Source of the DNA: an uncultured Gammaproteobacteria bacterium
GTDB taxonomy: Bacteria; Patescibacteriota; Patescibacteriia; UBA9934
Reading direction: 5' to 3'
NCBI GenBank assembly: GCA_964569575.1
Contig: CAZMTL010000001.1
Coordinates: 3,503-67,502 of the forward strand
Length of the DNA: 64,000 nt
The position numbers and the translations under genes are program-made. The stretch's first letter is position 1. Every line of letters starts with the position of its first letter. Below are positions 21,985 to 57,240 of the stretch, piece by piece. Below the pieces are notes generated by a model that saw only the letters and a list, made by a program, of their open reading frames with translations, was not told the DNA's origin and searched no databases.

Positions 21985-22215
21985 AACCGAGGTTCGTTAT
22001 CGATTGACGCTCGACTTTCGCCGAGAGATCTCTCGAGAATGCTCAAGACGAAATATTGCCGCGCTTCGCTCGCAATGACAAGGTCGAAGTGCGCAACATG
22101 TCTCTCGCCGCTAACCACCCCTAGCCCCTCCTTGAAAAGGAGGGGGAAGCGCGTACGAAAAGCGATAGATCCCGGGTCGGAGCCCGGGATGACGAGGATT
22201 TGGCAATGCGCTATA
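21985..22215. repeat. Composite intergenic block of palindromic repeats (families D cgccgagagatctctc, A-variant cccctccttgaaaaggaggggg, and B gatcccgggtcggagcccgggatgacg)
   Basis: Shares about 40-bp blocks with 56920..57195. The ORF-track hit 21973..22233 is a translation of these repeats. Confidence 0.6.
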
Positions 22216-27446: not shown

Positions 27447-28397
27447 ATGTTACTTGATTGGAAACAAGAAAAACGACCTATTATTGCTCTCTCACCCATG
27501 GCAGACATGACCGATTCTTCGTTTTGCCAAATTGTGAAATCGGTGGCGTCACCAATCGTTTTCCGCGAAATGGTTTCGGCGGAAGCGGTTGTGCGCGGAA
27601 ACGAAAAAACTATCGAGATGACCGATATTCACGAAGCGGAACGGCCACTAGTACAGCAGATTTTTGGTGCGCGTCCGAGCACGATGGCAGAAGCTGCGCG
27701 AATTATTGAAGAACAGCATCACCCGGAAGGCATCGATATCAACATGGGTTGTCCGGTGTATAAAATCACTTCAAACTTTAACGGCTCGGCATTGATGAAA
27801 GATCCTGTTACTGCCACAAAAATCGTGCGCGAGATGAAAGCCGCGATCACTGTTCCACTTTCAGTGAAAATTCGTGCTGGATGGTCGCAGTACGATGAAT
27901 GTGTTGAATTTTCCAAACGACTGGAAGATGCCGGAGCGGACTTGATTACCGTTCATGGACGAACAAAAGAACAGGGTTATGCCGGACTTTCGAATAAAGC
28001 GGCTGTCGCCGAAGTGAAGAAAGCCGTTTCTATTCCTGTTTTGTACAACGGTGATGTGTTTACTTGGCAAGATTTTTTTAGCTCACTCGACGTTACCGGG
28101 TGCGATGGAGTTTTGATTGCACGTGGAGCACTTGGGAATCCATGGATTTTCGAACAGATCGAATCGAAGCTTGCAGGCAAGGAACCGCGAGAAATTACAC
28201 TTGCAGAGCGAGTCGATGTCGCGCTGAAGCATTTTGATCTTCATTTACAGCAATACGGACAGGACAAGGTTGCTACGTTCCGCAAGCATCTTTCTTGGTA
28301 CTTTAAAGGACAGCCACATTTTAAACAGTATCGCGAAAAGTTGATGACAGCTCCCGACCGCGCAACTGTGGAGGCGATTTTACGAAGCGTCGTGTAA
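27447..28397 (+). CDS. dus: tRNA-dihydrouridine synthase
   Basis: SPMADMTD, NMGCPV and KIRAGW motifs. Start set at ATG 27447 (ORF track starts at TTG 27438). Confidence 0.8.
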   Translation: MLLDWKQEKRPIIALSPMADMTDSSFCQIVKSVASPIVFREMVSAEAVVRGNEKTIEMTDIHEAERPLVQQIFGARPSTMAEAARIIEEQHHPEGIDINMGCPVYKITSNFNGSALMKDPVTATKIVREMKAAITVPLSVKIRAGWSQYDECVEFSKRLEDAGADLITVHGRTKEQGYAGLSNKAAVAEVKKAVSIPVLYNGDVFTWQDFFSSLDVTGCDGVLIARGALGNPWIFEQIESKLAGKEPREITLAERVDVALKHFDLHLQQYGQDKVATFRKHLSWYFKGQPHFKQYREKLMTAPDRATVEAILRSVV

Positions 28398-30575
28398 GTC
28401 GCTTCGTTTTTTCATAATAGAAGCGTCGAATTGGTAATTTGGCGCGATCTCTGCCCCGTTCACAAATCTTGCATAGAGCGTTGGCTCAACATCTATTACG
28501 TAATCCCCCCAGTCTGATCCATATACCGCCGTTGCGACAGCTTCGTTCGGTATTTTTCGTTTTACTACTTCACCGTTCATTTCTTCGATCGCATACACAC
28601 TTGGGTCGCTTTGAATTTTCATCAATACAACTCCCGCCTTTGGAAGCACCGGCGCGCCTAACGGCAATACCGCAAGCGTCGCGTCCGTAACTGTCTTCAC
28701 CTGTGAAAAATCACTGTAATGCGTGAAGAACGTCTGTTCACTAAAGAACGGGCGACGACCACCTTCTTTTGTAACAAGATAAATTGTGTCGTACGAGTAT
28801 CCACGGATCAAATCACCTGGTTCGACGATCGAGATCGACTCTAGCTCACCCGTTGCGGGACTGATTCCGGTAGACGGCAGGTCGATTTCTGGTGACTCCT
28901 CTTCACTCTCTTCCTCTTCGGGCTGACCAAAGCAGCTTGCTTCGAACGTTGAAAACGAATAGTGCATGACTGACGACTGTACTCCATCTACACTTATAAA
29001 TATTGCGTACAGATCGCTACTTTCTGCGAAAGACCAGGTCGTTTCTGTTTGATCATTAAAGTAAACAACTTGAGCATCTACAAACTCGGGGTTACTACTT
29101 AAAACGACTCGGTTGGCGTTTTCTGCCTGAATCGTAAGCCCAACTTGCATTACGCACTCAGGATTTGATTCAATCACAATAGACATGTTGGACGGCACTT
29201 GCACCGAGCCTCCTCCTTCACTGGAAATATACAACTCTTGTAGGAAAAGAACGTATACGGCGCCACTGTTGAGCGCCCCTCCTCCGTCATCTTCGTAGGC
29301 TCCTGAAATAAGATCAACAACACCATCACCATTAATGTCGCCTCCGGATGCAATTGCATAAGCAAAAAAATCGTCGTTGTCTAACACGGCTTCAAATCCG
29401 CCTTGCGTATCACTAATTTTTGTTTGCGACTTTACGGTTCCATCTGCATTTAAAAATAAGACATAGATCGCTCCACGGTTCGGTCCTCCGTCATCGTCCG
29501 CAAACGTTCCCACGGCAATGTCCATGACTCCATCCTCGTTTGCGTCACCTATTGCTGTTACCGCTGAAAATAAATCGACGTCTTCTAATCCCTCTACCCG
29601 TCCAACAGTGGAGCTGATTTTTTTATGCTCCTTCACCGTTCCGTCAGGATTTAAAAAAAGTAAGAATACCGCTCCTCGCGCATATCCTCCGTCATTATCA
29701 CGACCTGCTCCAACAGCAATGTCTGGTGTACCGTCATTATCGAAATCTCCAATAGATGTGATCGAGGCTCCAAAAATATGCAGATCATGAAGTTGACCCG
29801 CAAAATTTCCGTCAGAATTTCCTATCTTCTGTTCATCCTTTACCGTTCCATCTGTGTTTAGAAATAAGATATAGATTGCACCCATTCTGTCACTTGCAAC
29901 ATCGTCATCTCCCGTTGCGCTTACAGCAATATCTTGTACACCATCACCGTCAACGTCTCCGATTAATGCCGCTGCGATTCCGAAATTATCTTGCGCGCGT
30001 AAAACTGACTGCAATCCCCCTTCGAGCATACTGATTTTTTGCTCGGCCTTTACCGTTCCGTTTGTGTTCATAAACAAAACGTAAACAGCTCCCGTATTCG
30101 AAGCTACGTCATCGTCGCCAATAGCACCAGTCACAATGTCTTCGACGCCATCACCGTCCAAATCTCCGATTCCGGCAATTGAAGACCCAAGTGAATCGTT
30201 GTTTGTTAATTCAGTTTGAAACCCTCCGTTTAATTCGTTGATTTCTTGCTCGGCCTTGACTGTACCGTCAGCATTTAGAAATAGAATATAAACGGCACCT
30301 TTGTGATTCCCTCCGTCATCGTTACTCACAGCTCCAACCGCAATGTCATTTATGCCGTCATCATCTAGATCGCCGATATTAGCAACGGCTCCACCAAATC
30401 CGTAATCCCCTCCAATTCTTTCTATCTTTCCTCCTTCGTCGTTATTGATTAACTGAAAATCGCTCACTCTTCCCGTTGTTTTTGCCGCAAATACCGGAGA
30501 CGTTATTGAGAACAAAATTCCCAATGTTAAAAACGTCAACATCAGATTTTTTTTCTTTGCAATATATTGAATCAT
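28380..30575 (-). CDS. Large secreted protein with about 7 tandem FG-GAP/integrin-alpha-type beta-propeller repeats and a C-terminal domain
   Basis: 731 aa with a signal peptide. The repeat GDLDGDGVEDIV.GA..DD.....GAVYVLF.N.DGTVK recurs about every 58 aa. Confidence 0.7.
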   Translation of the reverse strand: MIQYIAKKKNLMLTFLTLGILFSITSPVFAAKTTGRVSDFQLINNDEGGKIERIGGDYGFGGAVANIGDLDDDGINDIAVGAVSNDDGGNHKGAVYILFLNADGTVKAEQEINELNGGFQTELTNNDSLGSSIAGIGDLDGDGVEDIVTGAIGDDDVASNTGAVYVLFMNTNGTVKAEQKISMLEGGLQSVLRAQDNFGIAAALIGDVDGDGVQDIAVSATGDDDVASDRMGAIYILFLNTDGTVKDEQKIGNSDGNFAGQLHDLHIFGASITSIGDFDNDGTPDIAVGAGRDNDGGYARGAVFLLFLNPDGTVKEHKKISSTVGRVEGLEDVDLFSAVTAIGDANEDGVMDIAVGTFADDDGGPNRGAIYVLFLNADGTVKSQTKISDTQGGFEAVLDNDDFFAYAIASGGDINGDGVVDLISGAYEDDGGGALNSGAVYVLFLQELYISSEGGGSVQVPSNMSIVIESNPECVMQVGLTIQAENANRVVLSSNPEFVDAQVVYFNDQTETTWSFAESSDLYAIFISVDGVQSSVMHYSFSTFEASCFGQPEEEESEEESPEIDLPSTGISPATGELESISIVEPGDLIRGYSYDTIYLVTKEGGRRPFFSEQTFFTHYSDFSQVKTVTDATLAVLPLGAPVLPKAGVVLMKIQSDPSVYAIEEMNGEVVKRKIPNEAVATAVYGSDWGDYVIDVEPTLYARFVNGAEIAPNYQFDASIMKKRSDLHDAS

Positions 30576-32036: not shown

Positions 32037-32139
32037 GTCTTTTTATTAGTCGCCGGGATTATATCACACTCTTAAATCCTTGACTTTTTCGCTAATTATA
32101 GATATATATTCGTTGCACACAAACAACCCTGGAGGGGTT

Positions 32140-33081
32140 ATGAGCCGTCTTTCTTACGATGACTTGTCCTTCCGGGGACGATCGACGATCATCTTTGATC
32201 TGATGTTCTCGGTACTTACTCCGACGGTCGGGACTCGCCGAGCCCTAATCGCGGAGGCCTACCGGCGGTACGGAAACTTCGACGTCAACCCGAGCGATGA
32301 GCTTCTTGAGCAACTGATCCTGAAGCACCGTGGTGACATCGAGCCGATCAAGGACGACGAAGAGTACTGGAAGGTCGTCAACCTACTTGTGCTCTTCGAA
32401 CTCCGTGGATTCAGTACTCAGATCAAGTTCGGTCACCGCGCTCTAACGACTGCGCGTAAACGACTGAACGATCGCTTCGATGCGATTCGGGATCACGAGC
32501 AGATTTCGAATGTCAGCTTCCTTCTTGCTCTCGACTCACTGTTGAAGGGCGGAATCGACTACCTGGCTGCCGCGAAGAACATCCACGAGGAAATCGTGGC
32601 GACTCCTGCGAAGTACCAGCTGTCCGACGACATGCGTCAGCTGCTCGAGGACTTGCGCAGCTCGGGTCACCGACTGATCATTCTCTCGAACCAACGAGAC
32701 GATGCGGCGAATGAGCTCCTTCGTGCAACCGATGCACGCCAATACTTTGACGCGATCTACACGTCCGAAGCCCTTGGTGACCGCAAGCCTCATCGCAGCA
32801 TGTGGGACAAGCTTCTCGCGCTCGAAGACTGCACGTCCCAGGACTGTGTTCATATCGGGAACTCGCTCAACAGCGACAGCGGTGCGGCTGCGCTCGGCAT
32901 ACCTGTCCTGCTTCTCGACTTCGAGAACCGGTTCAAGCACGTATTCGGGTCCACTCGCGCTCGCGTACCACAATCCATCATCCCGGACCACAAGCCGCGC
33001 GTCATCAACGCGCGCATCCGTTCCGGACTCATCCGCCCAGCGTACAACGTTCCTCAGGTTCGTTCGCTCCTGCTCGGCTGA
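32140..33081 (+). CDS. HAD-superfamily hydrolase-like protein with an N-terminal extension, encoded by a GC-rich cassette
   Basis: ATG 32140 after GGAGGGG, with a TTGACT-17-TATATA promoter at about 32083..32111. Motif I is IIFDLMFSV (second Asp absent, dehalogenase-like). Also ILSNQ, GDRKP and GNSLNSD. Confidence 0.5.
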   Translation: MSRLSYDDLSFRGRSTIIFDLMFSVLTPTVGTRRALIAEAYRRYGNFDVNPSDELLEQLILKHRGDIEPIKDDEEYWKVVNLLVLFELRGFSTQIKFGHRALTTARKRLNDRFDAIRDHEQISNVSFLLALDSLLKGGIDYLAAAKNIHEEIVATPAKYQLSDDMRQLLEDLRSSGHRLIILSNQRDDAANELLRATDARQYFDAIYTSEALGDRKPHRSMWDKLLALEDCTSQDCVHIGNSLNSDSGAAALGIPVLLLDFENRFKHVFGSTRARVPQSIIPDHKPRVINARIRSGLIRPAYNVPQVRSLLLG

Positions 33082-33149
33082 TGCACCCACAGGGGACCTT
33101 GCAAGGGGTCCTCTTTCCTTTTAAGCTAAAAGTACTTAACCAAACGTGT

Positions 33150-34973
33150 ATGTGTGGAATTGTTGGATTTATTGGGAAAGAACCGGCGGTGCCGTTTTTG
33201 CTTGAAGGGTTAACCATTTTGGAGAATCGAGGATACGACTCGGCCGGGATCAGCACCGTGCATCAGAATGCGCTCGAAACGACTAAGTTTGCGAGTACTT
33301 CTAGCGAAGATGCTATTTCGCGTCTTAAACACAGCACCAGTCATCATGCTGCGGATTTTGTTGGTATCGCGCACACGCGTTGGGCCACGCATGGCGGAAA
33401 AACAGACGCGAATGCTCACCCGCATCATGATGCGAAAGATCGAATTGCACTCGTTCATAACGGTGTTATCGAAAATGCGCACGTTTTGCGAGAGGAATTA
33501 AAAACGTACGGTATTTCGTTTTTGTCTGAAACCGATACCGAGGTGATTGCGCAACTTGTTGGCTACTATCTTGATCAAAACCTCGAACTTACTGACGCGA
33601 TTAAAAAAGCGGTTCAGCGACTGGAAGGAACTTGGGGATTAGCAATCTTGTCCGTTGCGCATCCAGATCAGATTATTGCGGTACGAAACGGAAGTCCGAT
33701 CGTGATTGGCCTTGGAAAGAACCAACTATTCATCGCGTCGGAACCTGCAGCGTTTTCGCGACATACCAAGGATTTTATTTCGCTTGAAAATAACGAGGTA
33801 GCGGTCGTGAAGCTGAATAATCATACGCTTGATCTTTCGCGCGTCGAGAAAGCTCCAGATCAGGAAATTGCGCTTTCACCAGAACCATTTCCACATTGGA
33901 CAATTAAGGAAATCAGCGAACAGCCCGAAGCGATTTCGCGTGCGCTCAATTACGGAGGTCGTATTTTGAATCAAACGGATGTAAAGCTTGGCGGATTGGA
34001 TAGCGCAGAGGCGGATTTGCTTGGTATTAAACATCTTTTAATCGCGGCCTGCGGAACGAGTTACCACGCAGCACTTTACGCTGCACACTTGATGCGCGAA
34101 TTACGAGCCTTTGAAACGATTCAAGTGATCGACGCAGCAGAATTTTTCCCTGAGAATATTCCATCAAAAGACGGAGGCCTGCTTGTTATTTCGCAATCTG
34201 GTGAAACCAAAGACGTGCACCGGGCGGTTCAGCATGCACAAAATGCTGGCATTCCTGTTTTTTCGGTTATCAACGCCGTTGGCTCGTTGATTGCACGCTC
34301 AACCAAGTGTGGCGTGTATATTAACGCTGGGCGCGAACATGCGGTTGCCTCTACAAAAGCGTTTACGACGCAAATCACTGTTCTTGCTCTGATCGCAACG
34401 TGGTTTGCGCAACATCGATCAACTGGCTCATCGCAAAATCGAGCTTCGCTCATTGAATCGCTCCATCGATTTGCAACTAATTGTGGCATGACGCTTCGAA
34501 CGCAGGAACAGTGTGCTCGCATCGCCGAGAAGCTGGTTGGAAAAGATCATTGCTTCTTATTAGGAAAAGGTGTTTCGGAATCGATCGCACGTGAAGGAGC
34601 GCTCAAGATCAAAGAAATCACCTATTTACACGCCGAAGGTTACCCGGGTGGAGCATTGAAACACGGGCCATTTGCGTTGATCGAAAAAGGCACACCAATC
34701 TTTCTGCTGATCCTCGACGACAAGCACGCGCCGTTCATGCGCACGGCTGCCGAAGAAGTACGCGCACGCGGAGCCTATACCGTTGTCATTACAGACAAGC
34801 CGGAATTGGCTGAGGGAGTTGCGGACGACATCGTTATTGTTCCATCAAACGGCCACCTTACCGCCGCGCTTGCGAATATCCCGCTTCAAATTATTGCGTA
34901 TGAATTGGCGGTAAAGAAAGGAATCAATCCTGACAAGCCACGCAATCTAGCGAAGGCCGTGACGGTGGATTGA
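33150..34973 (+). CDS. glmS: Glutamine--fructose-6-phosphate aminotransferase (isomerising)
   Basis: Starts MCGIVGFIG (N-terminal nucleophile Cys). Two SIS domains and a C-terminal ...KAVTVD-type end. The upstream part of ORF 32802..34973 is a spurious extension. Confidence 0.9.
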   Translation: MCGIVGFIGKEPAVPFLLEGLTILENRGYDSAGISTVHQNALETTKFASTSSEDAISRLKHSTSHHAADFVGIAHTRWATHGGKTDANAHPHHDAKDRIALVHNGVIENAHVLREELKTYGISFLSETDTEVIAQLVGYYLDQNLELTDAIKKAVQRLEGTWGLAILSVAHPDQIIAVRNGSPIVIGLGKNQLFIASEPAAFSRHTKDFISLENNEVAVVKLNNHTLDLSRVEKAPDQEIALSPEPFPHWTIKEISEQPEAISRALNYGGRILNQTDVKLGGLDSAEADLLGIKHLLIAACGTSYHAALYAAHLMRELRAFETIQVIDAAEFFPENIPSKDGGLLVISQSGETKDVHRAVQHAQNAGIPVFSVINAVGSLIARSTKCGVYINAGREHAVASTKAFTTQITVLALIATWFAQHRSTGSSQNRASLIESLHRFATNCGMTLRTQEQCARIAEKLVGKDHCFLLGKGVSESIAREGALKIKEITYLHAEGYPGGALKHGPFALIEKGTPIFLLILDDKHAPFMRTAAEEVRARGAYTVVITDKPELAEGVADDIVIVPSNGHLTAALANIPLQIIAYELAVKKGINPDKPRNLAKAVTVD

Positions 34974-38968: not shown

Positions 38969-39967
38969 TTAATAATCCAATCCTTCTCGTGCTGGAACTC
39001 CTGAATAAAAGTAATGACGTTCCAATTTCATTTCGGTAATGATGTGAGCGGCTTCTAGGAAGGCCGGGTGAGGGTTGCGGCCGGTGAGTATAAGTTCGGT
39101 TTCGGGGTGTTTGTTTTTGATAAGATCGAGGATGTCGTCTGCGTTCATCATTCCAAGGGCGCAGGTGGAGTTTACTTCGTCTAGAATGACTAAATTATGT
39201 TCACCGCTCGCGAGCGCTTCTTTTGCGATTTGAAGTCCTCGTGCCGCTTCGGTTTTGTCGGTTTCGTTTATGGAGAAATCAAATCTGCCGGTTACTGGGT
39301 CAATACGGTCGCGCCCGGTTGGTTCGTAGTCGATCAATTCGATTTGGTCGAGCAAGTTACGTTCGTTGTAGTGGGTGTTCCCGCCTTTGTCGAAGTAAAT
39401 AATCTTCACGCGCTTCCCTGCCCCAGCGGCGCGGATTGCTTGGCCTAGAGCTGCGGTCGTTTTTCCTTTTCCGTTTCCGTAAATAAGCTGGACAAGCCCG
39501 TAGCCTTTTTTCCCAAGAATCCGATCGTCGCGACCAGAGATGCGTTCGAATTTTATGTAGGCTTCAACCACGCTGCGGACATATCCTTGCAGGTCTTCGG
39601 GAAGCGGCTGACGTGGATCGAGCCAAATGGATTCACTGTGTTCCCACGAAAGCACGATGTCGCCCGCTGGCATTGGAGCGATGTAGAAATTTTTAATTAC
39701 ACGTTCGTGCGCCATTTCACCAAATCCACTCGCAGCCATTGTGTGAAATAGTTGAGCACGCGATACGTCGATGGCAAGGCCGATTTCTTCCTTCACCTCA
39801 CGCGCAAGAGCTTCGAGAGGTTCTTCACCCAATTCCATCTGCCCACCCGGCAAATCCCAAGCACTTCCGTATTTGTCAGGAGTGGAGCTTTTAAGAAGGA
39901 GAATTTTTCCTTGTTCATTTACAAGAACGGCTTTGTGGGCGATGTAGTGTTTTCGAGAGGGGTTCAT
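38969..39967 (-). CDS. Fusion protein: N-terminal NUDIX hydrolase plus C-terminal ATP:cob(I)alamin adenosyltransferase (CobO/CobA/BtuR family)
   Basis: Nudix box GGQMELGEEPLEALAREVKEEIGL. The C-terminal half has P-loop GNGKGKTTAALG and the CobA-like motifs NLVILDEV, GRNPHPAFLEAAHIITEM. Confidence 0.65.
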   Translation of the reverse strand: MNPSRKHYIAHKAVLVNEQGKILLLKSSTPDKYGSAWDLPGGQMELGEEPLEALAREVKEEIGLAIDVSRAQLFHTMAASGFGEMAHERVIKNFYIAPMPAGDIVLSWEHSESIWLDPRQPLPEDLQGYVRSVVEAYIKFERISGRDDRILGKKGYGLVQLIYGNGKGKTTAALGQAIRAAGAGKRVKIIYFDKGGNTHYNERNLLDQIELIDYEPTGRDRIDPVTGRFDFSINETDKTEAARGLQIAKEALASGEHNLVILDEVNSTCALGMMNADDILDLIKNKHPETELILTGRNPHPAFLEAAHIITEMKLERHYFYSGVPAREGLDY

Positions 39968-39983
39968 ATCGATGATTATTTCT

Positions 39984-40076
39984 GGTCATTGCGAGGAACA
40001 GGGTGACGAAGCAATCTTTCGTCGTGCAATTGAATCGCGAGATTGCTTCGTCGGCTGCGCCTCCTCGCAAGGACGA
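39984..40076. repeat. Palindromic repeat family C (gtcattgcgagga...gacgaagcaatc / gattgcttcgtc...cctcgcaa)
   Basis: Long inverted repeat. A second copy in the same orientation lies at 50226..50287. Confidence 0.65.
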
Positions 40077-40174: not shown

Positions 40175-40543
40175 GTGACAAAGACTGCTGCTCCGGAGAT
40201 CAATGCTACTCAAGAGGCAATCAAGCACACGATGACGCATGCGCTGACCAATGGAGGGATCGACGAGTGGAACGAGCTCAGGTACGAGTACTCTCACATC
40301 AAGCTCGAGTTCTGCAACCACGATTTCTCAGGCCTGGACCTCCCCTTCCGGAACCTTTCGGGGTTGAATTTCTTCGGATCCAAGTTCTCAGGAACTGATC
40401 TCGACGGCGCTGATCTCACCGGCTGTACCGGCCTCACTGCTCACCAGCTCGCGCAGGCTCGCAATCTCGAGCATGCGTTGCTCGACCCCAATCGCTACGC
40501 GGATGCGGTGGCGGCGGGGTACAAGCGCGCTAACGAGAAGTGA
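40175..40543 (+). CDS. Pentapeptide-repeat protein (short), encoded by a GC-rich cassette
   Basis: GTG 40175 after GAAGGAG. A(D/N)LxG pentapeptide units. C-terminal tail RYADAVAAGYKRANEK is shared with the next gene. Confidence 0.65.
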   Translation: MTKTAAPEINATQEAIKHTMTHALTNGGIDEWNELRYEYSHIKLEFCNHDFSGLDLPFRNLSGLNFFGSKFSGTDLDGADLTGCTGLTAHQLAQARNLEHALLDPNRYADAVAAGYKRANEK

Positions 40544-40625
40544 ACTCTCTCGAGCGAGCGCGTCAAGGCGCGCTCGCTCGCTGACCCAGGTTTTCGGACC
40601 TGGGTCTTGCTTTTCCAAACCCAGC
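40544..40625 (+). terminator. Twin-hairpin 3' module (gagcgagcgcg..cgcgctcgctc and gacccaggttttcggacctgggtc), directly repeated after each pentapeptide gene
   Basis: Nearly identical copy at 41548..41630. Confidence 0.5.
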
Positions 40626-40725
40626 GAAACCTTGACTTTGTATTAATTTTCGTGCAGAATAATCAGTCGTTTTGGCAATGTGCTGAACGCGTTCACGGCC
40701 TTTCGGGGCAAAGGGGTCAGATACT

Positions 40726-41547
40726 ATGATGAAGGTTCAGATGGTCGCAATGCTGCGCAAGGGACGAATCGAGGAATGGGACGCATGGCGGACGGTGAAT
40801 CCGGGAGTGCGTATCGACCTTTCGATGACTGATCTCTCAGAGGCAAATCTCGAAGGGGTGAATCTGGCATCCGCAAACCTTAAAGGGGTGAATCTTAAAG
40901 GGGCAAACCTGAAGCGAGCGAACTTCTGGAAGGCGGATCTCGCAAGGGCGGATCTTCAGAACGCAAAGCTCTCAGATGCGTATCTCGGATCTGCAAACTT
41001 GTCGGGAGCCGATCTGCGAGAGGCAGATCTGACAGAAGCATATCTCTCACGAGCGAACTGCTGGAAGACGGATCTGCGGGGTGCAAATCTCTCGGACGCA
41101 TATCTCGAACGCACAAACCTCTCAGAAGCAGACCTACGTGGCGCACACCTTCACGCAGCAGTTATCGATGACGCGGATCTGTCGGGAGCGAATCTCGAAA
41201 AGGCCAACTGCGCGGATGCTGATTTCGAGGGCACGCATCTTTCGGGAGCAAACCTTCGTTCAGCGAACCTGTCGCATACAAATCTGTCGGCGACGGATCT
41301 CTCAGGAACGTGTCTCGCGGATGCGAACCTTCAAGATGCTGATCTTGCGGGAGCAGATCTTCGAGGGGCGATTCTGTCGGGAGCAGATCTTCGAGGGGCG
41401 ATTCTCTTGGCAGCCGACCTTTCAGCAGCAGTCCAACTGATCGCTGCCCAGCTTGCGCAAGCTGGAAACCTCGAGGACACCAACCTAGATCCTGACCTCT
41501 ACGCGGATGCGGTGGCGGCAGGGTACAAGCGCGCTGACGAGAAGTGA
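40726..41547 (+). CDS. Pentapeptide-repeat protein (273 aa, about 40 consecutive pentapeptide units), paralog of the upstream gene
   Basis: ANLxxADL repeats throughout. Same C-terminal tail and a conserved about-60-bp 5' leader (aatcagtcgttttggcaatgtg..gaac). Confidence 0.75.
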   Translation: MMKVQMVAMLRKGRIEEWDAWRTVNPGVRIDLSMTDLSEANLEGVNLASANLKGVNLKGANLKRANFWKADLARADLQNAKLSDAYLGSANLSGADLREADLTEAYLSRANCWKTDLRGANLSDAYLERTNLSEADLRGAHLHAAVIDDADLSGANLEKANCADADFEGTHLSGANLRSANLSHTNLSATDLSGTCLADANLQDADLAGADLRGAILSGADLRGAILLAADLSAAVQLIAAQLAQAGNLEDTNLDPDLYADAVAAGYKRADEK

Positions 41548-41739: not shown

Positions 41740-44700
41740 TTAGCTGCACCCTGATGTTGAACCGCAGTTCAAGCATTTGTAGCAGGCGGCGTTGCGGACC
41801 ATGATGGAACCGCAGGTGTCGCAGGCTGGGGCGTCAGCAGAGTTGTCAAAAGTGTTTGTAAGAGCCGCTTTTGCCTCTACTTGTTCAGCTACTTCTGGCT
41901 TTGCCTCGATTTTCTTCACAGGTTCGCTTTGGCTTGCTTGCGCAGACTGAGAAGGCTGAGGAACGATAGCTTCTTCCACCTCAATTCGATCGTCCAAGTC
42001 TTCTGTGTTCGCAGGTGCTGTGCCGTGGGTCATTTTGTTTTCACCTGTCACTTCCAAGTTGTTCAATCCTACTTTTGATTGATCTTCTGGTGAAAGGAAT
42101 TTGAGCGCCATCCATCGGAAGATGTAGTCGACGATTGATTTTGCCATTCGAATGTTTGGATTATTTGTAAATCCAGATGGTTCGAATCGCTTGTGAACGT
42201 ACTTGTTTACCAAGACTGGCAATGGAACTCCGTACTGCAATCCGATCGATACGGCTGTTGCAAAACTGTCCATCAAACCACTAATCACCGAACCTTCTTT
42301 TGCCATGGTGATAAAGATTTCTCCCGGCTTTCCGTCGTCGTACAATCCAACCGTTAGGTACCCTTTGTGACTCGCGATACTGAATCGGTGCGTAATCGAA
42401 CGTCGTTCGTCGGGCAAGCGTCGTCGTTGTGGAGCGCCAGCGTACGAAATTGTTTTTGTTGGAATCGACATTTGCACCTGTGTCTGTTCCGATAGACCCC
42501 TCCTAGCCTCCCCTTGTGAAGGGGAGGAAGCGCTCGCGAGTGGAGTTGCTTCTTTCTTCACTTCATCTTTCTTCGATGCGTCTTTTTCTTTTGATGTTGT
42601 AAGAGCTTGTTGTCGCTTTGAACCGTCGCGGTAGATCGCGATCGCTTTCAATCCCATCTTCCATCCTTCCATGTATACATGTTCTACGTCTTCTACCGTT
42701 GCTTCTTTTGGCATGTTTACCGTTTTACTAATTGCTCCCGAAATAAACGGTTGCACAGCGGCCATCATACGAACGTGTCCCATGTAGTGGATTGTTCGTG
42801 TTCCATTCTTTGCTTTGAACGCACAGTCGAATACCGACAAGTGTTCTTCGGAAATGTGTGGCGCACCTTCGATGGTGTCGTTTGCGTCGATGAATGCAAT
42901 GATCGCATCAACCTGTTCTTTCGTGTAGCCCAATCGTGCAAGTGCTTCTGGAACGGTTCCGTTGACGATCTTGAGCATACCACCGCCAACGAGCCATTTG
43001 TATTTTACGAGCGCGATGTCTGGTTCCACTCCTGTTGTGTCGCAGTCCATCAAGAATCCAATCGTTCCTGTTGGAGCAAGTACCGAAATTTGCGCGTTGC
43101 GAATTCCGTGCTTCACTCCCCCATCGATCACGTTGTCCCAAGATTTTCGGGCTTCGAACAACAGTTCCGCTGGAACACCGTTTGGATCGATTTCGTAGGC
43201 GGCCTTTCGGTGCATTTGCATTACTTCCATCATTGGTTCGGCGTTCTTTTTGAATCCAGCGAATGGACCAATTTTTTCTGCCGCTTTTGTTGATTGGAAG
43301 TAGCTTTGACCAGATAGCAATGCCATGATCGCTCCTGCCATGTTTCGACCTTCGTCTGAATCGTAGGCAACTCCTCGGCTCATCAAAAGTGCTCCTAGGT
43401 TTGCGAATCCGATTCCAAGCGGTCGGTAATCGTGGCTGTTCTTTTCGATTGCTGGTGTTGGGTAACTAGAATTTCCAACAAGGATTTCCATCGCTGTAAT
43501 CACGACTTCAGCAGCCTTTTTGAATGCTTCAACGTCAAATTCCATCACGCCGTTTACTTCCTTTCGGTACTTCATCAAGTTGAGTGAAGCCAAGTTACAT
43601 GCCGAGTCGTCTAGGAACATGTATTCCGAACACGGGTTCGATCCGTTGATGCGATCGGTGTTTTTACTTGTGTGCCAATTATTGATGGTTGTGTCGTACT
43701 GAATTCCAGGATCTCCACATTCCCATGCCGATTGCGCCATTTCGCGGAACAATTCTTTTGCATCGTATTCAACCGACGGGTTTCCTGTTGTTACTTCCTT
43801 TGTTGTCCATCGCGCGCCGTTTTCCACCGCCTTCATAAATTCGTCGCTTACGCGTACCGAATTGTTTGCGTTTTGGAAGAAGATTGAGCTGTATGCTTCT
43901 CCGTCCATCGAAGAATCGTATCCAGCGTCAACAAGTGCCCATGCCTTCTTTTCTTCTCTTACTTTACAGTGAATGAATTCCAAAATATCTGGGTGATCGA
44001 TATTTAGCATCACCATCTTTGCCGCACGTCGTGTTTTTCCGCCTGACTTTACCGTTCCAGCGAATGCGTCAAATCCTTTCATGAACGAAACTGGTCCGGA
44101 TGATTTGTTGTTCGATCCACCGATAAATTCTTTACTTGAACGGAGTTTTGAGAGGTTTGACCCTGTACCTGATCCGCCCTTGAAAAGCATGCTTTCTGTT
44201 GTGGCAAGTTGCATGATTGAACGCATGTCGTCTTCCACGGCGTTGATGAAGCAGGCTGAACACTGTGGATGTGGTTCTGTTCCTAGGTTGAACCAAACTG
44301 GACTGTTGAATGCTGCGTATTGGTTGATCAAAATGAAAGTCAATTCTTCTTCGAACGTTGTTGCGCTGCGAGCGTCTTGGAAGTATCCATCTTTTCGTCC
44401 CCATTGCGCGATTGTTTGCGCCACGCGGTCGATCAATTGCTTCATCGATGTTTCGCGATCTGCATCGCCTACTTTTCCTCGGAAGTATTTTTGAGCCACG
44501 ATGTTTGTGGCAGTTTGCGACCACGTTTTTGGTGTTTCGATGTTGTTTTGTTCAAAAATGACCGCGTTCTTTTCGTTGGTAATTTTTGCTGTACGCATTT
44601 CCCATTCAATCTTCTTGTACGGGTGAATCCCTTCTTCGGTAAAATATCGGTCGAATACCAATCCCTTTCCGTACTTTGGTTCGGCTGTTGTAGAAGGTGC

Positions 44701-45048
44701 CAACTGCTGACGGAATGAAGAATACTTTTTCGCCACGTGCGTTAAGTTGTTGTCGATCAATGTCATCGAAACAACTTCTCGCACATCGGCACTGCTTGGT
44801 TCGGTGTGACCGTTGTAAATACGGTGCAAGCGATCGCCGACCTGTTCGGTAATTTTGCGGGCGCGGTCTTGCTCTCGCATGCCGGCAATTTCCATCGCCT
44901 TCACGACCGAAGCGTGCAGTTTGTCGTACTGAAATGATTGCGATTCACCATTTCGTTTTTTGATGCTTTTTACAGCAGTCATGTAATCCCACACAATGTC
45001 ACCGACGTTGCCGGTTTTTTGTTGTGTGTTTGTTGCGGACTGGTTCAT
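41740..45048 (-). CDS. nrdJ: Ribonucleotide reductase, monomeric class II (adenosylcobalamin-dependent, NrdJ-like) with N-terminal ATP-cone and C-terminal zinc ribbon
   Basis: 1102 aa. ATP-cone VKSIKKRNGESQSFQYDKL, active-site NPCSEYMFLDDSACNLASLNL, C-terminal CDTCGS...CYKCLNCGS. An in-frame repeat-derived segment SPSQGEARRGL sits in a linker. Confidence 0.8.
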   Translation of the reverse strand: MNQSATNTQQKTGNVGDIVWDYMTAVKSIKKRNGESQSFQYDKLHASVVKAMEIAGMREQDRARKITEQVGDRLHRIYNGHTEPSSADVREVVSMTLIDNNLTHVAKKYSSFRQQLAPSTTAEPKYGKGLVFDRYFTEEGIHPYKKIEWEMRTAKITNEKNAVIFEQNNIETPKTWSQTATNIVAQKYFRGKVGDADRETSMKQLIDRVAQTIAQWGRKDGYFQDARSATTFEEELTFILINQYAAFNSPVWFNLGTEPHPQCSACFINAVEDDMRSIMQLATTESMLFKGGSGTGSNLSKLRSSKEFIGGSNNKSSGPVSFMKGFDAFAGTVKSGGKTRRAAKMVMLNIDHPDILEFIHCKVREEKKAWALVDAGYDSSMDGEAYSSIFFQNANNSVRVSDEFMKAVENGARWTTKEVTTGNPSVEYDAKELFREMAQSAWECGDPGIQYDTTINNWHTSKNTDRINGSNPCSEYMFLDDSACNLASLNLMKYRKEVNGVMEFDVEAFKKAAEVVITAMEILVGNSSYPTPAIEKNSHDYRPLGIGFANLGALLMSRGVAYDSDEGRNMAGAIMALLSGQSYFQSTKAAEKIGPFAGFKKNAEPMMEVMQMHRKAAYEIDPNGVPAELLFEARKSWDNVIDGGVKHGIRNAQISVLAPTGTIGFLMDCDTTGVEPDIALVKYKWLVGGGMLKIVNGTVPEALARLGYTKEQVDAIIAFIDANDTIEGAPHISEEHLSVFDCAFKAKNGTRTIHYMGHVRMMAAVQPFISGAISKTVNMPKEATVEDVEHVYMEGWKMGLKAIAIYRDGSKRQQALTTSKEKDASKKDEVKKEATPLASASSPSQGEARRGLSEQTQVQMSIPTKTISYAGAPQRRRLPDERRSITHRFSIASHKGYLTVGLYDDGKPGEIFITMAKEGSVISGLMDSFATAVSIGLQYGVPLPVLVNKYVHKRFEPSGFTNNPNIRMAKSIVDYIFRWMALKFLSPEDQSKVGLNNLEVTGENKMTHGTAPANTEDLDDRIEVEEAIVPQPSQSAQASQSEPVKKIEAKPEVAEQVEAKAALTNTFDNSADAPACDTCGSIMVRNAACYKCLNCGSTSGCS

Positions 45049-45209
45049 AGCCTAGAAGAATTTTATTAATAAAAGGTCTGGTGAAGAATGCTCTCCAAAA
45101 AGGTGCTATCGCTTTTTTTGCGATTAAAAAGATCCCTTCCTTTGGGATCCCACTGATCGAACCTGGTCTAACATGTACGTTAGGGCGAGTTCTCACTCTT
45201 TCGAGCGCA

Positions 45210-45257
45210 ACACAAGATGTTGTGTTGATGACTACATTGTAGCACAAGATGTTGTGT
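45210..45257 (-). promoter_or_regulatory. Two NrdR-box-like 16-bp palindromes (acacaacatcttgtgY on the minus strand), 32 bp centre-to-centre, about 160-210 bp upstream of nrdJ
   Basis: ACACAAGATGTTGTGT at 45210..45225 and GCACAAGATGTTGTGT at 45242..45257. ACAC-N8-GTGT geometry and tandem spacing match NrdR operators. Confidence 0.5.
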
Positions 45258-45299
45258 TTGGTTTTGGGTTTTGTGGATAAAATTTCTGTAACTTTTTTT

Positions 45300-45840
45300 G
45301 GCGAGAGTTGGCGCTGAAACAAAAGAGCCCCCTCGGAACACATCGGCAGGCGAACCTGCAAATGTGCCCGAGAGGGCGAGAGACCAGTGTATCTGTGCCG
45401 CCCCGTTGTTCTTCGCCTGGTCGGTATCGTGCGAAGAGGGCTCTGGTTGGCGGTGTCATGCGGAGGAAAACCAGAAAATCTTTTCCGCATGGTGACGCTG
45501 TTTACGGGTCACTCCGTTTGCCACCTGGTTCTCCCAGGGCTGGTTGGCTGTATTCGTGGTCTTCGTACTTGTGAACTACCAGCATTCACAAGCATATAGC
45601 GTCCTATTTCCCGGTCCGCGCAGGTCTGGTTGTTTTTTTACTTTTCCGCCTACTGGAGTACCAGCACTTCCTAGGCGCACCGACCAACAATTCACGGTGT
45701 CGGGACGTGGTCTCTCGATCTCGAGCTCGAGTCTGGGTGACTCTTTTCGTGCGGGCTTTACCAGTTTCATCCCCGCATATATCGACCAAACTCCTGGGTC
45801 GAACAGGTGTCCACCGCATCAACTATAGCGGCATGGACCG
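45300..45840 (-). ncRNA. Candidate structured non-coding RNA of about 540 nt (GC-rich, no ORF, own promoter); identity unknown
   Basis: Minus-strand promoter TTGACG-17-TACATT at + coordinates 45873..45845. No ORF over 95 aa with coding character. Many GNRA-type GAAA loops and a UUCG loop (GGCAGGUUCGCCUGCC), with stem-forming complementarity. Confidence 0.25.
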
Positions 45841-45965
45841 AAAGAATGTACTACATTTTTAACCGGTCGTCAAGTGCGAAGCCTACTTTCGCCTTGAATT
45901 ACTTGGCTTTTCTTGCGTAAATCAAATAGGCCCTATAGGTCGAATATGACCTATGGGACCTATTT

Positions 45966-47021
45966 TTACTCTTCTCGTAAATCCAGTTCTTCTAATAACT
46001 TTTTCTGCGCTTTCGATAGCTTCTTTGGGGTTTGTACTTTTAACACAACGTATTGATCGCCGCGCCAGCTGCCTTCTGGGACTCCTTTGCCTTTCATGCG
46101 TAGGCGGTCGCCGGATTGCGACCCTGCGGGGATTTTTAGTTTTACTAGGCCGTCGACGGTATCTACCTGTACTTCGTCACCAAGTGCCGCTTGTGTGAAG
46201 CCGATGGTTTTCTTTACGTAAATGTCTTTTCCGTCGCGCTGGAATCGTGGGTCGCTCTTTACATGCAGCTGCAAGAACAAATCCCCCGACTCGCCGCCGC
46301 GTCCAATCGATTCCCCTTCACCGCGCACACGGATGCGCATGCCGTCTTCTACTCCTGCCGGGATGTCGATGCGTAACGTCTTTTTTCCGTATGTAAATCC
46401 GTCGCCGTCACAATCTTTACATTTCGTTTCCGGAATTTCGCCTGCGCCGTTGCAGTCTTCACAATTCACGCGCGTCTGCATGTTTCCTAACATGGTGCGT
46501 GCAATTTTCACCTGGTAACCCTGTCCTTTACACGTGTCACACGTCTTCATGCTCGACCCAGGTTCTGCACCGATTCCTGCACATCGTTCGCAAGCGTTGT
46601 TTTTGCTAAGTGACACTTCTTTTTCCACGCCGAAGATGGATTCGTTGAACGTAAGTTGAACATCGATCAACGCATCGCCTCCACGCGGAGCTCGCGCACC
46701 GCCTCCGCCACCGAAACCACTTCCAAACATGCTGCCAAAAATATCACCCAAATCCTCGAAGTGCATTCCCTGCCCTCCAAATCCACCAAATCCACCCGCT
46801 CCCGGACCAGCGCCGTCGAATGTTTGCCCGTACTGGTCGTACTGCTTCCGTTTCGTTTCATCACCAAGCACCTGGTAGGCTTCATTCACCTCCTTAAACT
46901 TCGCTTCGTCTCCACCCTTGTCCGGATGAAACTGATGCGCTTTCGCTCGAAACGCTTTTTTGATTTCGTCCTTCGACGCAGATTTGTCGACGCCTAGTGT
47001 GTTGTAATAGTCTTTGGGCAT
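45966..47021 (-). CDS. dnaJ: Chaperone DnaJ (J domain, G/F region, four CxxCxGxG zinc-finger repeats)
   Basis: 351 aa. DYYNTLGV...HPDK, then [32 protein letters not shown]. Confidence 0.9.
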
Positions 47022-47852: not shown

Positions 47853-48187
47853 ATTTTTGCCCTTCCCCCTTCACCACCTTCGCGCGGGCGTCGATTACTT
47901 TTTTCTTGGATTTGCCTACGATCTTTCCCCAGATCCAGTCGCGTACTCGTGGAATCGAAAGGATCCAGAGGAGTCCGGAGAGGAGTGCGAGGAAGCCGCG
48001 GACGAAGAGGGCGAAGAGTTTTTTCATAGAGGAATGGTTGGTGATTTTCTTTCATTATCGCACAGAATCACATTCTGCACATGTCACCGTAGGCGAAGCG
48101 AATAGATCCCCGGCACTAAAGGCCGGGCAGGCTTTCACTTTGTTCAGGATGACAAGGTGAGGCGTGTTGAGTTGAATCGCGATGCCG

Positions 48188-48270
48188 CGACCCCCTGTCG
48201 TCCCCCTTGGTAAGGGGGACACAGGCTTGCGGCGTTTCCTCCCCTTACCAAGGGGAGGCTAGGAGGGGTC
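48188..48270. repeat. Palindromic repeat family A (twin hairpins cccccttggtaaggggg and cctccccttaccaaggggagg)
   Basis: A near-identical inverted copy lies at 56809..56893. A half-copy sits inside nrdJ at 42495..42543. ORF 48207..48473 is a translation artefact (SPYQGEARRGL). Confidence 0.7.
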
Positions 48271-48312
48271 TTCTTGGAGAAAATGTTCGCAAGAGTCTGC
48301 ATTGCGCAAACC

Positions 48313-50205
48313 TTATTTCTCGTCGTCCTTCTTTACTTCTTCGAATTCTGCATCTTTTGTTCCTTCGTCTTTCTTTTCTTCACCACCGGCTGCTGCGGCT
48401 TGTTGTTCTTGTTGGTAGATTTTTGCGCCTACAGCTTGAGCGGCTTGCGAGAGTTCTTCTGACGCTTTTTTGATGGCTTCGATGTCGTCGCCGTCTTTTA
48501 GCTTTTTAAGAGCTTCTACTTTTTCCTCGATTGGTTTCTTTTCTTCGTCGGTGATTTTGTCCTTATGTTCTGTGAACATTTTTTCTACGGTGTACACCAT
48601 GGTGTCGGCCGTGTTTCGGACTTCGATCATTTCGCGCTTCTTCTTATCTTCTTCTGCGTGTGTTTCGGCGTCCTGTTTCATCTTTTCGATTTCATCTTTT
48701 GAAAGTCCAGATGACGCGGTGATCGTAATCTTTTGTTCCTTGTTCGTTCCCTTGTCCTTTGCTTTTACGTTTAGGATTCCGTTTGCGTCGATGTCGAAAC
48801 TTACTTCGATTTGCGGAACTCCGCGTGGAGCTGGTGGGATTCCAGTTAGGCTGAATTGTCCGAGTAGTTTGTTGTCGGCCGCCATTTCGCGTTCACCTTG
48901 GAAGACTTTGATGTCTACCGAAGGCTGGTTGTCGGCTGCAGTTGAGAAGACTTGAGATTTCGACGCTGGGATTGTTGTGTTCTTTTCGATCAACTTGGTC
49001 ATAATTCCTCCCATCGTTTCGATTCCGAACGAAAGCGGAGTTACGTCCAAAAGAAGAACGTCCTTTACGTCACCTTGAAGTACTCCGGCCTGAACAGCGG
49101 CACCAAGCGCCACTACTTCGTCTGGGTTTACCGTTACGTTTGGCTTTTTGCCGAAAAATTCTTCTACTTTCTTCTGGATCAATGGCATTCGGGTCATTCC
49201 TCCTACCATCACGATTTCTTCGATCGCTTTCGATTCTAGCTTCGCATCTTTCAATGCCTGTCGTACTGGGCCAAATGTTTTTTCTACCAACGGCATCACC
49301 AATTCTTCCAACTTCGCTCGTGTCAATTTCATCACCAAGTGCTTTGGACCTTCTGCGCCCGAAGTGATGAACGGTTGGTTGATTTCTGTTTCTTGAGCCG
49401 TTGAAAGTTCGATTTTTGCGCGTTCTGCTGCGTCCTTAATTCGTTGAAGCGCAAGAGAATCTTTGCTCAAATCCACGCCTTCGAGGTTTTTGAATTCGGT
49501 AATAATCCAGTCGATCACCACTTTGTCGAAGTCGTCTCCTCCAAGGTGCGTGTCACCGTGCGTTGAAATTACTTCTACCGTGTTATCTGAAACGTCGAGC
49601 ACAGACACGTCGAATGTTCCTCCTCCTAGATCGTACACAAGAATTTGCTGACCGGCTTTCTTTTCGAATCCGTACGCAAGTGCTGCCGCCGTAGGTTCGT
49701 TAATAATTCGAAGAACCTTTAGTCCTGCGATTTCACCTGCGTCTTTTGTTGCTTGGCGTTGTGCGTCGTCGAAGTAAGCTGGAACGGTAATGACCGCTTC
49801 GGTAATTGTTTCACCTAGCTTTTCTTCGGCGTCTGCTTTCATCTTTTGCAACACCATCGCGCCGATCTGCTGTGGAGTGAATTCTTCACCACCCATTTTT
49901 ACCGCTACACCTTCACCGCGTTTGATGATTTCGTACGGCATCAATTTTACGTCTTCGGTAACTTCGTCATCTTCAAAACGTCGGCCGATAAGTCGTTTTA
50001 CTGAATAAAGAGTGTCTTTTGGATTCGTAACCGCCTGTCGCTTTGCTGGAAGTCCAACAAGGCGTTCACCTGTTTTTGAAGTCGAAATCATCGAAGGAGT
50101 TGTTCGGTTTCCTTCCTTGTTTTCGATAATCTTCGGCGATCCACCCTCCATAATCGCCATCGCACTGTTTGTTGTTCCTAAATCGATTCCTAGAATTTTT
50201 GCCAT
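48313..50205 (-). CDS. dnaK: Chaperone DnaK (Hsp70)
   Basis: 630 aa. Motifs [27 protein letters not shown], plus the C-terminal acidic EEVD-like tail. Confidence 0.95.
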
Positions 50206-50225: not shown

Positions 50226-50287
50226 TGGTCATTGCGAGGAGTGCTGCGACGAAGCAATCTTTTACTTCGCTGCGCTCGCAATGACGG
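50226..50287. repeat. Palindromic repeat family C copy (ggtcattgcgaggagtgctgcgacgaagcaatc ... ctcgcaatgac)
   Basis: Same orientation as 39984..40076. Lies between dnaK and grpE. Confidence 0.65.
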
Positions 50288-51611: not shown

Positions 51612-51928
51612 TTTTGATTCGTCAAGAGTCTAAAAAGGGTTGTGAGTGGATGGTTTTTGAAGAGCTGGAATTTTGAGGGGTTGAGGCCTGTGTTACGCAG
51701 AATAGTGCTTACGCTTGAGTTACTTATTCCGTCATCCCGGACTCGATCCTGGATCCATCGGTCTTCACTTTCGCTTCCCCCTCCTTTTCAAGGAGGGGTT
51801 AGGGGTGGTTACGCGCTGTTTGAGCGCAATCTTGAGCGCATATTGTGGTTGACTTTTTATCTAAAATCTGTTACTCTTTTCTGTTTCCGGACGGCCTTGA
51901 AATGGTGATTTCCCGGAAAGGAGGAGAT

Positions 51929-56689: not shown

Positions 56690-57240
56690 TTAATTGTTGT
56701 AAGTATAACACAATTGATTTTTGTAATGCGATGCTCGCCGTCGCGTGTTGTACTTGGATGGTCGTTGGTTGTATTGATGAAGAAAAGTGGATCGCTGTTT
56801 TTCGAGAAGACCCCTCCTAGCCTCCCATTGGTAAGGGGAGGAAGCGCTGCAGGCTCGTGTCCCCCTTACCAAGGGGGACGACAGGGGGTCGCGTGACGCA
56901 TTCGCGTTCGATTATCGCGGAACCTCCCCTCCGTCCTTCGCTAAAGCTTCGGAGGACCCACCCGTAGCCTTGGCGAAGGAGGGGAAGCGCGTTTTGATCT
57001 TCGCCGAGAGATCTCTCCACTTCGCTCGGCTTCGCCTCACTTCGGTCGAGATGGTGATGTTTTAATTATGTTCCTACTACTTAGAGCATCTTTTTTTCTT
57101 ACCATCTCGACCGAACGAAGTGAGCGGAGAGATCTCTCGTGTGCGCTCGAAGCGAAATAAGCGATGGATCCCGGGTCGGGGCCCGGGATGACGGAGATGA
57201 TAGAGGCGCGTCGTGAGTAGGGATTGTTAGATCATTCGAG
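56690..57240. repeat. 550-bp cluster of nested palindromic repeats (families A, D and B plus a large inverted repeat 57030..57135)
   Basis: The family A copy at 56809..56893 is inverted relative to 48188..48270. Family D cgccgagagatctctc occurs twice, 56995-57025 and 57116-57140. Family B is at 57166..57192. Confidence 0.7.

Follow-up and report, generated by a model that had tools for sequence, protein, structure and literature searches.

A 64,000-nucleotide stretch of contig CAZMTL010000001.1 from a candidate phyla radiation (CPR) bacterium (the window) carries nrdJ, the gene for a class II (B12-type) ribonucleotide reductase (RNR). Judged from the sequence, its open reading frame (ORF) is intact and carries 14 residues, S839-L852, derived from a small palindromic repeat. 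The segment very probably represents a neutral, in-frame passenger insertion of a hairpin element, similar to repetitive extragenic palindromic (REP) sequences and their doublets (REPINs), into a disordered linker of the enzyme. By analogy, the case is an example in a CPR bacterium of the protein-coding palindrome behavior already known from Rickettsia. The features on which the argument depends are as follows.

41740-45048 (-), nrdJ, class II (B12-type) RNR, intact 1102-aa ORF (ORF map, Pfam, PDB match)
42433-42615 (-), hypervariable linker, residues 812-872, from the catalytic core (...AIYRDGSK) to the C-terminal TSCPD-type domain (RRRRLPDER...) (orthologs, AlphaFold2, PDB)
42494-42534 (+), singlet of the hairpin module on the strand opposite nrdJ, its translation being S839-L852 (SASSPSQGEARRGL) (repeat alignment, covariance model)
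42507-42527 (+), hairpin core of the nrdJ copy, a perfect 9-bp stem CCTCCCCTT/AAGGGGAGG with a 3-nt loop (pattern match, folds)

The repeat copy within nrdJ

An initial annotation, made from the sequence alone, had placed half of a palindromic repeat ("family A") inside nrdJ at 42495-42543. The sequence gacccctcctagcctccccttgtgaaggggaggaagcgct was indeed found at 42495-42534, where the coding strand reads AGC GCT TCC TCC CCT TCA CAA GGG GAG GCT AGG AGG GGT CT and the minus-strand translation runs ...PLASASSPSQGEARRGLSEQ.... Positions 42494-42534 align to 56808-56848 at 93% and, inverted, to 48232-48271, also at 93%. The resemblance to the other copies goes no further than 42534, which makes the remainder of the annotated interval, 42535-42543, ordinary linker sequence. 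The core CCTCCCCTTGTGAAGGGGAGG (42507-42527) and its relatives gave five matches in the window, compared with none in 100 dinucleotide-preserving shuffles. Using a covariance model of the module trained on 30 family members, the nrdJ copy scored 57 bits (E about 1e-14) and ranked second among the seven strong copies in the window, of which it is the only genic one, the other six being intergenic. Its similarity spans the non-palindromic head (AGACCCCTCCTAGCC), the tail (GGAAGCGCT) and the stem alike, and the stem was recovered in minimum free energy and centroid folds of both strands.

The ORF at 41740-45048 (-) is the sole long ORF spanning the repeat site. Its Pfam domains (PF02867, PF00317, PF08471, PF03477 and PF12637) were precomputed on P0001, a database protein identical to the window NrdJ, and together with the PDB matches they include the large-chain barrel and class II N-terminal domain that define a class II RNR. 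The top PDB match was the B12-dependent RNR 7b9q (E = 5.7e-174), followed by Thermotoga maritima NrdJ, 1xje (1.7e-58). Named relatives are annotated as "vitamin B12-dependent ribonucleotide reductase" and come from metagenome-assembled genomes (MAGs) of Candidatus Uhrbacteria, Parcubacteria and Patescibacteria. Among 5.8 billion proteins, the next-nearest ortholog is 75% identical. The earlier description of nrdJ as essential may be taken as a presumption, made from 64 kb of genome.

Conserved sequence resumes in frame on both sides of the repeat, in agreement with the claim that the frame is undisrupted. Repeats are able to cause misjoins, and the window is apparently metagenome-assembled (one NCBI protein match, a single contig, and named relatives that are MAGs), which raises the question of whether two nrdJ fragments were joined at a shared repeat. 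This is barely credible. Residues 1-811 and 875-1000 have identical sets of nearest relatives (P0002-P0006), which counts against a chimeric assembly; the frame is kept, a conserved linker motif of the SIPTKTIS type follows the repeat just as it does in orthologs, and the repeat itself is only 41 nt long.

The linker that hosts the repeat

Linker length across some 119 NrdJ orthologs is 22-61 aa, with a median of 43; the window linker, at 61 aa, is the longest, and the residues that flank the linker are invariant or nearly so. The five closest orthologs (75% identical overall) have linkers of 23-45 aa without the repeat peptide, and the peptides QGEARRG, SPSQGE and ARRGL were absent from all 119 other orthologs retrieved. 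Translation of the repeat within a low-complexity linker, as first described, is thus borne out, and the ortholog alignment that had been proposed as a check finds the peptide to be lineage-specific. In an AlphaFold2 model, built on 77 sequences and only moderate overall (mean pLDDT, the predicted local distance difference test, of 69.8), pLDDT drops under 50 for exactly residues 812-874, which are bracketed by confident strands at 802-807 and 883-902. Solved NrdJ chains can be aligned only to residue 818-819, that is, they stop at the linker. By linker length, predicted structure and the reach of solved chains, the insertion site is permissive. The nrdJ case shows that, for elements of this kind, disordered interdomain linkers are like intergenic DNA.

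Could a low-complexity Ser/Pro/Gly linker have come to resemble the repeat by chance? The linker does have a biased composition, and the module itself goes from C/T-rich to G/A-rich. The empty shuffles and the covariance model E value speak otherwise, as do the identity that extends into the non-palindromic head and tail and a peptide shared with none of the 119 orthologs. Coincidence is effectively refuted.

The module family within the window

Apart from the nrdJ copy, the following members of the family were located.

48186-48281 (-), intergenic inverted doublet ("family A"), just after the dnaK stop and between convergent genes; modules 48234-48271 (-) and 48188-48225 (+) (repeats; fold -48.2 kcal/mol, z = -3.65)
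56798-56893 (+), second intergenic inverted doublet; modules 56808-56845 (+) and 56854-56891 (-) (repeats; fold -45 kcal/mol, z = -2.5)
22112-22149 (+), intergenic variant of the module, its stem compensated (CCCCTCCTT/AAGGAGGGG), with a hairpin module of another kind after it (49.7 bits)
51774-51811 (-), the variant module again, between divergent genes (45.7 bits)
56955-56988 (+), weak, distant relative of the module (CCCGTAGCCTTGGCGAAGGAGGGGAAGCGC) (12.2 bits, E = 0.085; alignment)

The two 96-nt doublets are 91% identical to one another and have the ends GACCCC...GGGGTC. Within the doublet, the left arm can be aligned to the right arm once the latter is reverse-complemented (GACCCCTCCTAGCCTCCCCTTGGTAAGGGGAGG versus GACCCCCTGTCGTCCCCCTTGGTAAGGGGGAC), which defines modules of ~38 nt, each comprising a head (ACCCC[T/A]CCTAGCC), a 9-bp hairpin and a GGRA tail. 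The head contains CTAG in nearly all copies, GTAG being seen only in the weak variant at 56955-56988. In the variant modules, CCCCTCCTT/AAGGAGGGG replaces CCTCCCCTT/AAGGGGAGG by compensating changes. The nrdJ copy does correspond to one arm of the 96-nt element, as the phrase "half of family A" implied, but is better described as one complete unit; elsewhere, singlets are as common as doublets. The initial annotation had also pointed to artefactual ORFs elsewhere, and these were recovered: 48207-48473 (+) reads ...SSPYQGEARRGLL... and 56690-56872 (-) reads ...SSPYQWEARRGLL.... An Rfam search of the window returned only a tRNA at gathering thresholds, and the module is not a curated RNA family.

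Intergenic mosaics of other small palindromic modules were seen at 56900-57200, 22020-22200, 51744-51811, 39983-40019 and 50226-50262. They contain GATCCCGGGTCGGAGCCCGGGATGACG, GAGAGATCTCTC, TCATTGCGAG...GAAGCAATC and CCTTCGCTAAAGCTTCGGAGG, in orders that vary alongside the module studied here.

The module family beyond the window

An exact-pattern scan for CCTAGCCTCCCNTTGNNAAGGGGAGG, which has 23 specified bases, found 51 stretches in GTDB species representatives, a set without the source genome, and a further 63 in metagenome contigs; ~0.02 matches would be expected by chance in 596 Gb (simple arithmetic, assuming uniform base composition). Five upstream bases lying outside the search pattern (CCCC[T/A]) are conserved in nearly all of the matches. 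Within the CPR, the record titles include Saccharibacteria, Uhrbacteria, Paceibacteria, Doudnabacteria, Berkelbacteria, Andersenbacteria and Moraniibacteriota; others are Nitrospirota, Chloroflexota/Dehalococcoidia, SAR324, Devosia, Bradyrhizobium, Vibrio, Marinomonas and cyanobacteria. The pattern scan gave no matches in viral contigs, so there is no evidence for a phage vector.

The covariance model gave 117 matches in 505 kb of fetched loci. Over 98 distinct copies, the 9-bp stem was paired in 98.9% of cells, and changes on both sides were seen at eight of the nine pairs (68 cells). This level of pairing and covariation was reached by none of 500 shuffles, and sliding the partner by 1-3 columns reduced pairing to 62-80%. 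Among full-length copies (n = 103), 59 were singlets and 42 lay in inverted doublets.

A ~35-nt form of the module, CCCC[T/A]CCTAGCC-TCCCCTTGnnAAGGGGA-GG, is nearly identical across records from CPR bacteria, Alpha- and Gammaproteobacteria, cyanobacteria, Nitrospirota and Chloroflexota (L002-L052 and L059-L121). Such near-identity between phyla is not predicted by a vertically inherited REPIN model.

In-frame copies in other genes

Genic copies were accepted where at least 50-60 open codons lay on both sides, the host protein then being confirmed by Pfam. By this measure there are 11 further host proteins with in-frame copies, inside or between domains.

L007, Met aminopeptidase (MAP), in-frame singlet copy
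L013, dihydrouridine synthase (Dus), in-frame doublet
L017, HhH-GPD glycosylase, in-frame singlet copy
L023, HRDC-ExoVII large subunit (XseA) ORF, in-frame copy
L036, glutamyl-tRNA synthetase (GltX), in-frame singlet copy
L052, UvrD helicase, in-frame singlet copy
L002, 2069-3244 (-), ATP synthase gamma (AtpG), doublets
L035, 2-1246 (-), methionyl-tRNA synthetase (MetRS), doublet
L033, C39-like peptidase, in-frame copy
L091, EF-Tu-type GTPase, doublet, with the same peptide SSPSQGEARRG
L079, dihydrofolate reductase (DHFR), in-frame doublet

In every host the Pfam match spans the insertion and takes in more residues of the protein than there are profile positions; the ATP-synt match, for instance, uses 359 residues for 285 positions, and the DHFR match is split into two stretches. 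Going by record titles, the hosts are almost all from Patescibacteria, with two from Gammaproteobacteria MAGs; records such as those of Devosia, Bradyrhizobium, Vibrio and Nitrospirota have their copies between genes. On each strand the third frame is shut by CTAG in the head; the four that remain open are all in use, giving TPPSLPLxRGG and HLASPWKGE in sense and SSPxQGEARRG and PPLxKGRLGG in antisense orientation. The use of all four points to a passive filter, not to selection for one peptide.

The ORF through the L113 copy was excluded as a probable read-through, being upstream of a DUF559 domain, and the ORFs through the L026 copies, which look artefactual, were not counted. The Saccharibacteria ATP synthase gamma gene (L002) has two doublet-like insertions in the one gene. 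The Berkelbacteria MetRS (L035) has a tandem module pair together with the C-terminal peptides VIPAKAGI and IPDQVRDD, typical of other repeat families.

These copies bear on the form in which the module entered nrdJ. A full inverted doublet (~85-96 nt) could have been inserted, or copied from an intergenic copy by recombination or gene conversion, with one arm deleted later. The closest relatives of the nrdJ copy in the window are both doublets, doublets stand in frame in Dus, AtpG, MetRS, DHFR and the GTPase (L013, L002, L035, L079 and L091), and in the REPIN literature it is the doublet that replicates, singlets being remnants (PMC3337134, PMC3116915). We nevertheless think this course unlikely: singlets make up 59 of the 103 full-length copies, those in MAP, the HhH-GPD glycosylase, GltX and UvrD included, and no trace of a second arm was seen beside 42494-42534 by sequence, alignment or covariance model. 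The CGCG that follows the nrdJ copy was considered as a scar of internal doublet deletion and dropped, a 4-nt match being no evidence.

Other modules in the NrdJ linkers of orthologs

DNA was fetched for NrdJ orthologs with repeat-like linker peptides. The linker of P0100 (L053), ...CACCCCAACCCTCTCCTTTGAAAGGAGAGGGGGAC..., contains a 10-bp stem and a full-length match to the model (E = 0.002) in the orientation opposite to that of the window copy; 2 kb from this module, the locus contains another copy of it at 92%. In P0119 (L055), the linker holds CATTGCGAG-N-GAAGCAAT around a 7-bp GC stem. The window has two occurrences of the same pattern, each of them between genes (39987-40015 and 50230-50258; 0 expected), and 58 other loci have a single one, in the L055 NrdJ linker. 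The linker of P0026 (L054) is a weaker case, with a 24-nt, 92% match to window 56934-56957 (E = 0.017). On sequence grounds, two other NrdJ orthologs carry independent palindromic modules in the same linker, and the third remains the weaker candidate. A control with a plain linker, P0003 (L001), had no hairpin.

P0100 (L053 12446-12586) and P0088 (L056 12464-12613) are 91% identical as proteins, about 89% at the DNA level and about 90% in the flanking DNA, yet ~55 nt of their linkers are wholly different, with a distinct hairpin-like segment in each. This suggests rapid turnover at one spot in the linker. The 6-bp stems in the L056 and L058 linkers were not counted as insertions, as by our own estimate they are within chance for 150 nt, and the GAGLVPAH peptide of L057 had no clear palindrome.

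The same comparisons were used to weigh a role for the segment, whether as an mRNA hairpin or internal AGGAGG that slows ribosomes between domains or as residues that adjust how far the C-terminal tail can reach. The 9-bp stem has kept its full pairing, the antisense orientation puts GGGGAGG and AGGAGG in the mRNA, and the linker connects the core to the Cys-rich C-terminal tail, all of which would suit such a role. The closest orthologs, however, function without the segment; different NrdJ lineages have unrelated modules in either orientation; the four open frames are all used in other host genes; and two 91%-identical NrdJ proteins differ at exactly this spot. With the modules and frames varying, and that pair differing as it does, the pattern looks like turnover and not conservation, and a selected function is very unlikely.

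Origin of the nrdJ segment

In the favored reading, that of a passive in-frame insertion, a small REP/REPIN-like palindromic element would multiply in the source genome and in many others, and one unit would have been inserted, antisense, into the DNA for the length-tolerant, disordered NrdJ linker. Three filters would decide which copies persist in genes. The added bases would have to be a multiple of three, here presumably 42 nt for 14 residues; the frame entered would have to be stop-free, the head CTAG shutting one frame per strand and leaving the others open; and the copy would have to land where the protein tolerates extra residues. The outcome would be 14 residues rich in Ser, Pro, Gly and Arg (S839-L852), translated and passively carried in the stretch that separates the core from the C-terminal domain, and presumably leaving the enzyme unaffected. 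By analogy with REPs, mobilization was probably by recognition of the hairpin on single-stranded DNA.

Several observations weigh against an insertion of this kind. The nearest ortholog is only 75% identical, no empty site was found and no target duplication is visible, so we infer where the insertion begins and ends, whether a target was duplicated and how long the insert is (41 nt matched, 42 needed). Among the 56 ORFs of the window there was no Pfam match to a transposase of any kind at E <= 1e-4, nor was there a gene for a REP-associated tyrosine transposase (RAYT) or an IS200-like transposase, or any insertion sequence (IS); mobility, which the initial annotation had attributed to the repeat, is therefore inferred from distribution only. 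The nrdJ copy is a singlet, whereas in the REPIN model the doublet is the mobile unit. A 61-nt segment of nrdJ mRNA around the repeat folds no better than shuffles (z = -0.9; also -0.7), and the fold energy, not being distinctive, was left out of the evidence. Covariation was counted on an alignment fitted to the model, and the extended NrdJ protein is a predicted product.

Relation to known systems

The closest parallel is with the Rickettsia palindromic elements (RPEs; Ogata et al. 2000, 2002), for which the summary in PMC10969869 gives 44 integrations in R. conorii genes, many of them fold-compatible in-frame fusions. As described there, RPEs likewise form a dispersed palindromic family found in frame in unrelated housekeeping genes, where they add a short peptide at fold-compatible positions while the product is kept. 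The present family is dispersed and palindromic, with in-frame copies in intact, conserved genes and, in NrdJ, at a permissive site. RPEs, however, measure ~100-150 bp, occur in Rickettsia only and encode a conserved peptide specific to the family, whereas the present module is ~38 nt (14 aa), is read in four frames, occurs as singlets or inverted doublets (~85-96 nt) and is found in many phyla. It falls below the RPE size of about 100-150 bp and is an analogue of the RPEs, not a member; size sets it apart, and a sequence relationship is not expected.

With REPs and REPINs the module shares a length of 20-40 nt, a conserved short head joined to an imperfect palindrome, a mostly extragenic distribution, inverted doublets that form a long hairpin, and many singlets (PMC3116915, PMC3337134). 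It differs in having CTAG as its head in place of the canonical GTAG. REPs are mobilized by RAYTs, and no RAYT or IS200-like gene was found in the 64-kb window. REPINs are also lineage-specific and vertically inherited, whereas this module is near-identical across phyla, and REPs are extragenic by definition, whereas this family is repeatedly genic.

[quoted passage not shown] They too are small, non-autonomous repeats with occasional in-frame fusions to host ORFs; they are, however, longer than 100 bp and have terminal inverted repeats, often with target-site duplications tied to a known IS, whereas here neither such a duplication nor, in the window, a parent IS was identified. Inteins and introns occur in ribonucleotide reductase genes (PMC2677866) and are, like the nrdJ element, selfish elements tolerated there. 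Those elements hit the most conserved catalytic sites and remove themselves; the nrdJ element, at 14 aa and lacking a splicing domain, occupies the region where the protein is least conserved and has to remain in the product.

Literature searches found no description of palindromic repeats in CPR/Patescibacteria or of repeats in NrdJ linkers. A broader proposition, whose chances we put at about even, is that CPR genomes have a cross-phylum ~35-nt hairpin family that, like RPEs in Rickettsia, enters essential housekeeping genes repeatedly in frame (NrdJ, GltX, MetRS, ATP synthase gamma, Met aminopeptidase, UvrD, Dus, DHFR and the EF-type GTPase), and that several unrelated module families land repeatedly in the NrdJ linker from core to C-terminal domain. 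If so, short, lineage-specific protein insertions in reduced CPR genomes would have a source not described before, and a repeat near-identical across phyla would be at odds with the vertically inherited REPIN model. What recognizes or spreads the module is the testable question posed by that near-identity. For annotation, the 14 odd residues of NrdJ, being repeat-derived, should not be taken as a functional motif, nor should the ORF be flagged as disrupted; TPPSLPLxRGG, HLASPWKGE, SSPxQGEARRG and PPLxKGRLGG could serve in metagenome annotation as signatures for masking artefactual ORFs and insertions derived from the repeat.

The nrdJ neighborhood and other features of the window

A NUDIX-CobA/BtuR corrinoid adenosyltransferase gene lies near nrdJ at 38972-39967, and its counterpart is immediately downstream of nrdJ in L001 and L056, a gene neighborhood in keeping with the use of adenosylcobalamin by the predicted enzyme and lending it contextual support. 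Between nrdJ and the NUDIX-CobA/BtuR gene, the window has two pentapeptide-repeat genes (40175-41547) whose flanks are duplicated (176-nt and 60-nt direct repeats). Given that nrdJ and the NUDIX-CobA/BtuR gene are adjacent in L001 and L056, this interval looks like a local insertion or duplication. Two near-identical palindromic boxes, ACACAACATCTTGTG[C/T]T, lie ~160-210 nt upstream of the nrdJ start, at 45257-45241 and 45225-45209 (-), their starts 32 nt apart. They resemble the NrdR consensus and may be a tandem pair of NrdR boxes.

The region 45290-45900, between dnaJ (45966-47021) and the nrdJ start (45048), comprises ~600 nt without a convincing ORF. It contained no tRNA or transfer-messenger RNA, had no Rfam match (at gathering thresholds, or at E <= 1 over 45000-46000) and resembled none of the fetched loci. 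On both strands its fold is much stronger than those of shuffles (z = -5.2 on the minus strand and -6.3 on the plus strand; 20 shuffles each), and it may be a large structured RNA, encoded on one strand or the other.

At 32037-34970, a glmS-like ORF is called with 723 aa, its amidotransferase domain beginning only at residue 184, and the L001 ortholog has 609 aa. Ahead of this ORF are 765 nt without a gene (ORF map, ORFs of at least 70 aa). The call is probably over-extended, next to another long non-coding stretch. Finally, five tandem repeats of ~207 nt at 29414-30299 lie inside the gene for a 731-aa FG-GAP repeat protein (28383-30575) and are ordinary domain repeats.

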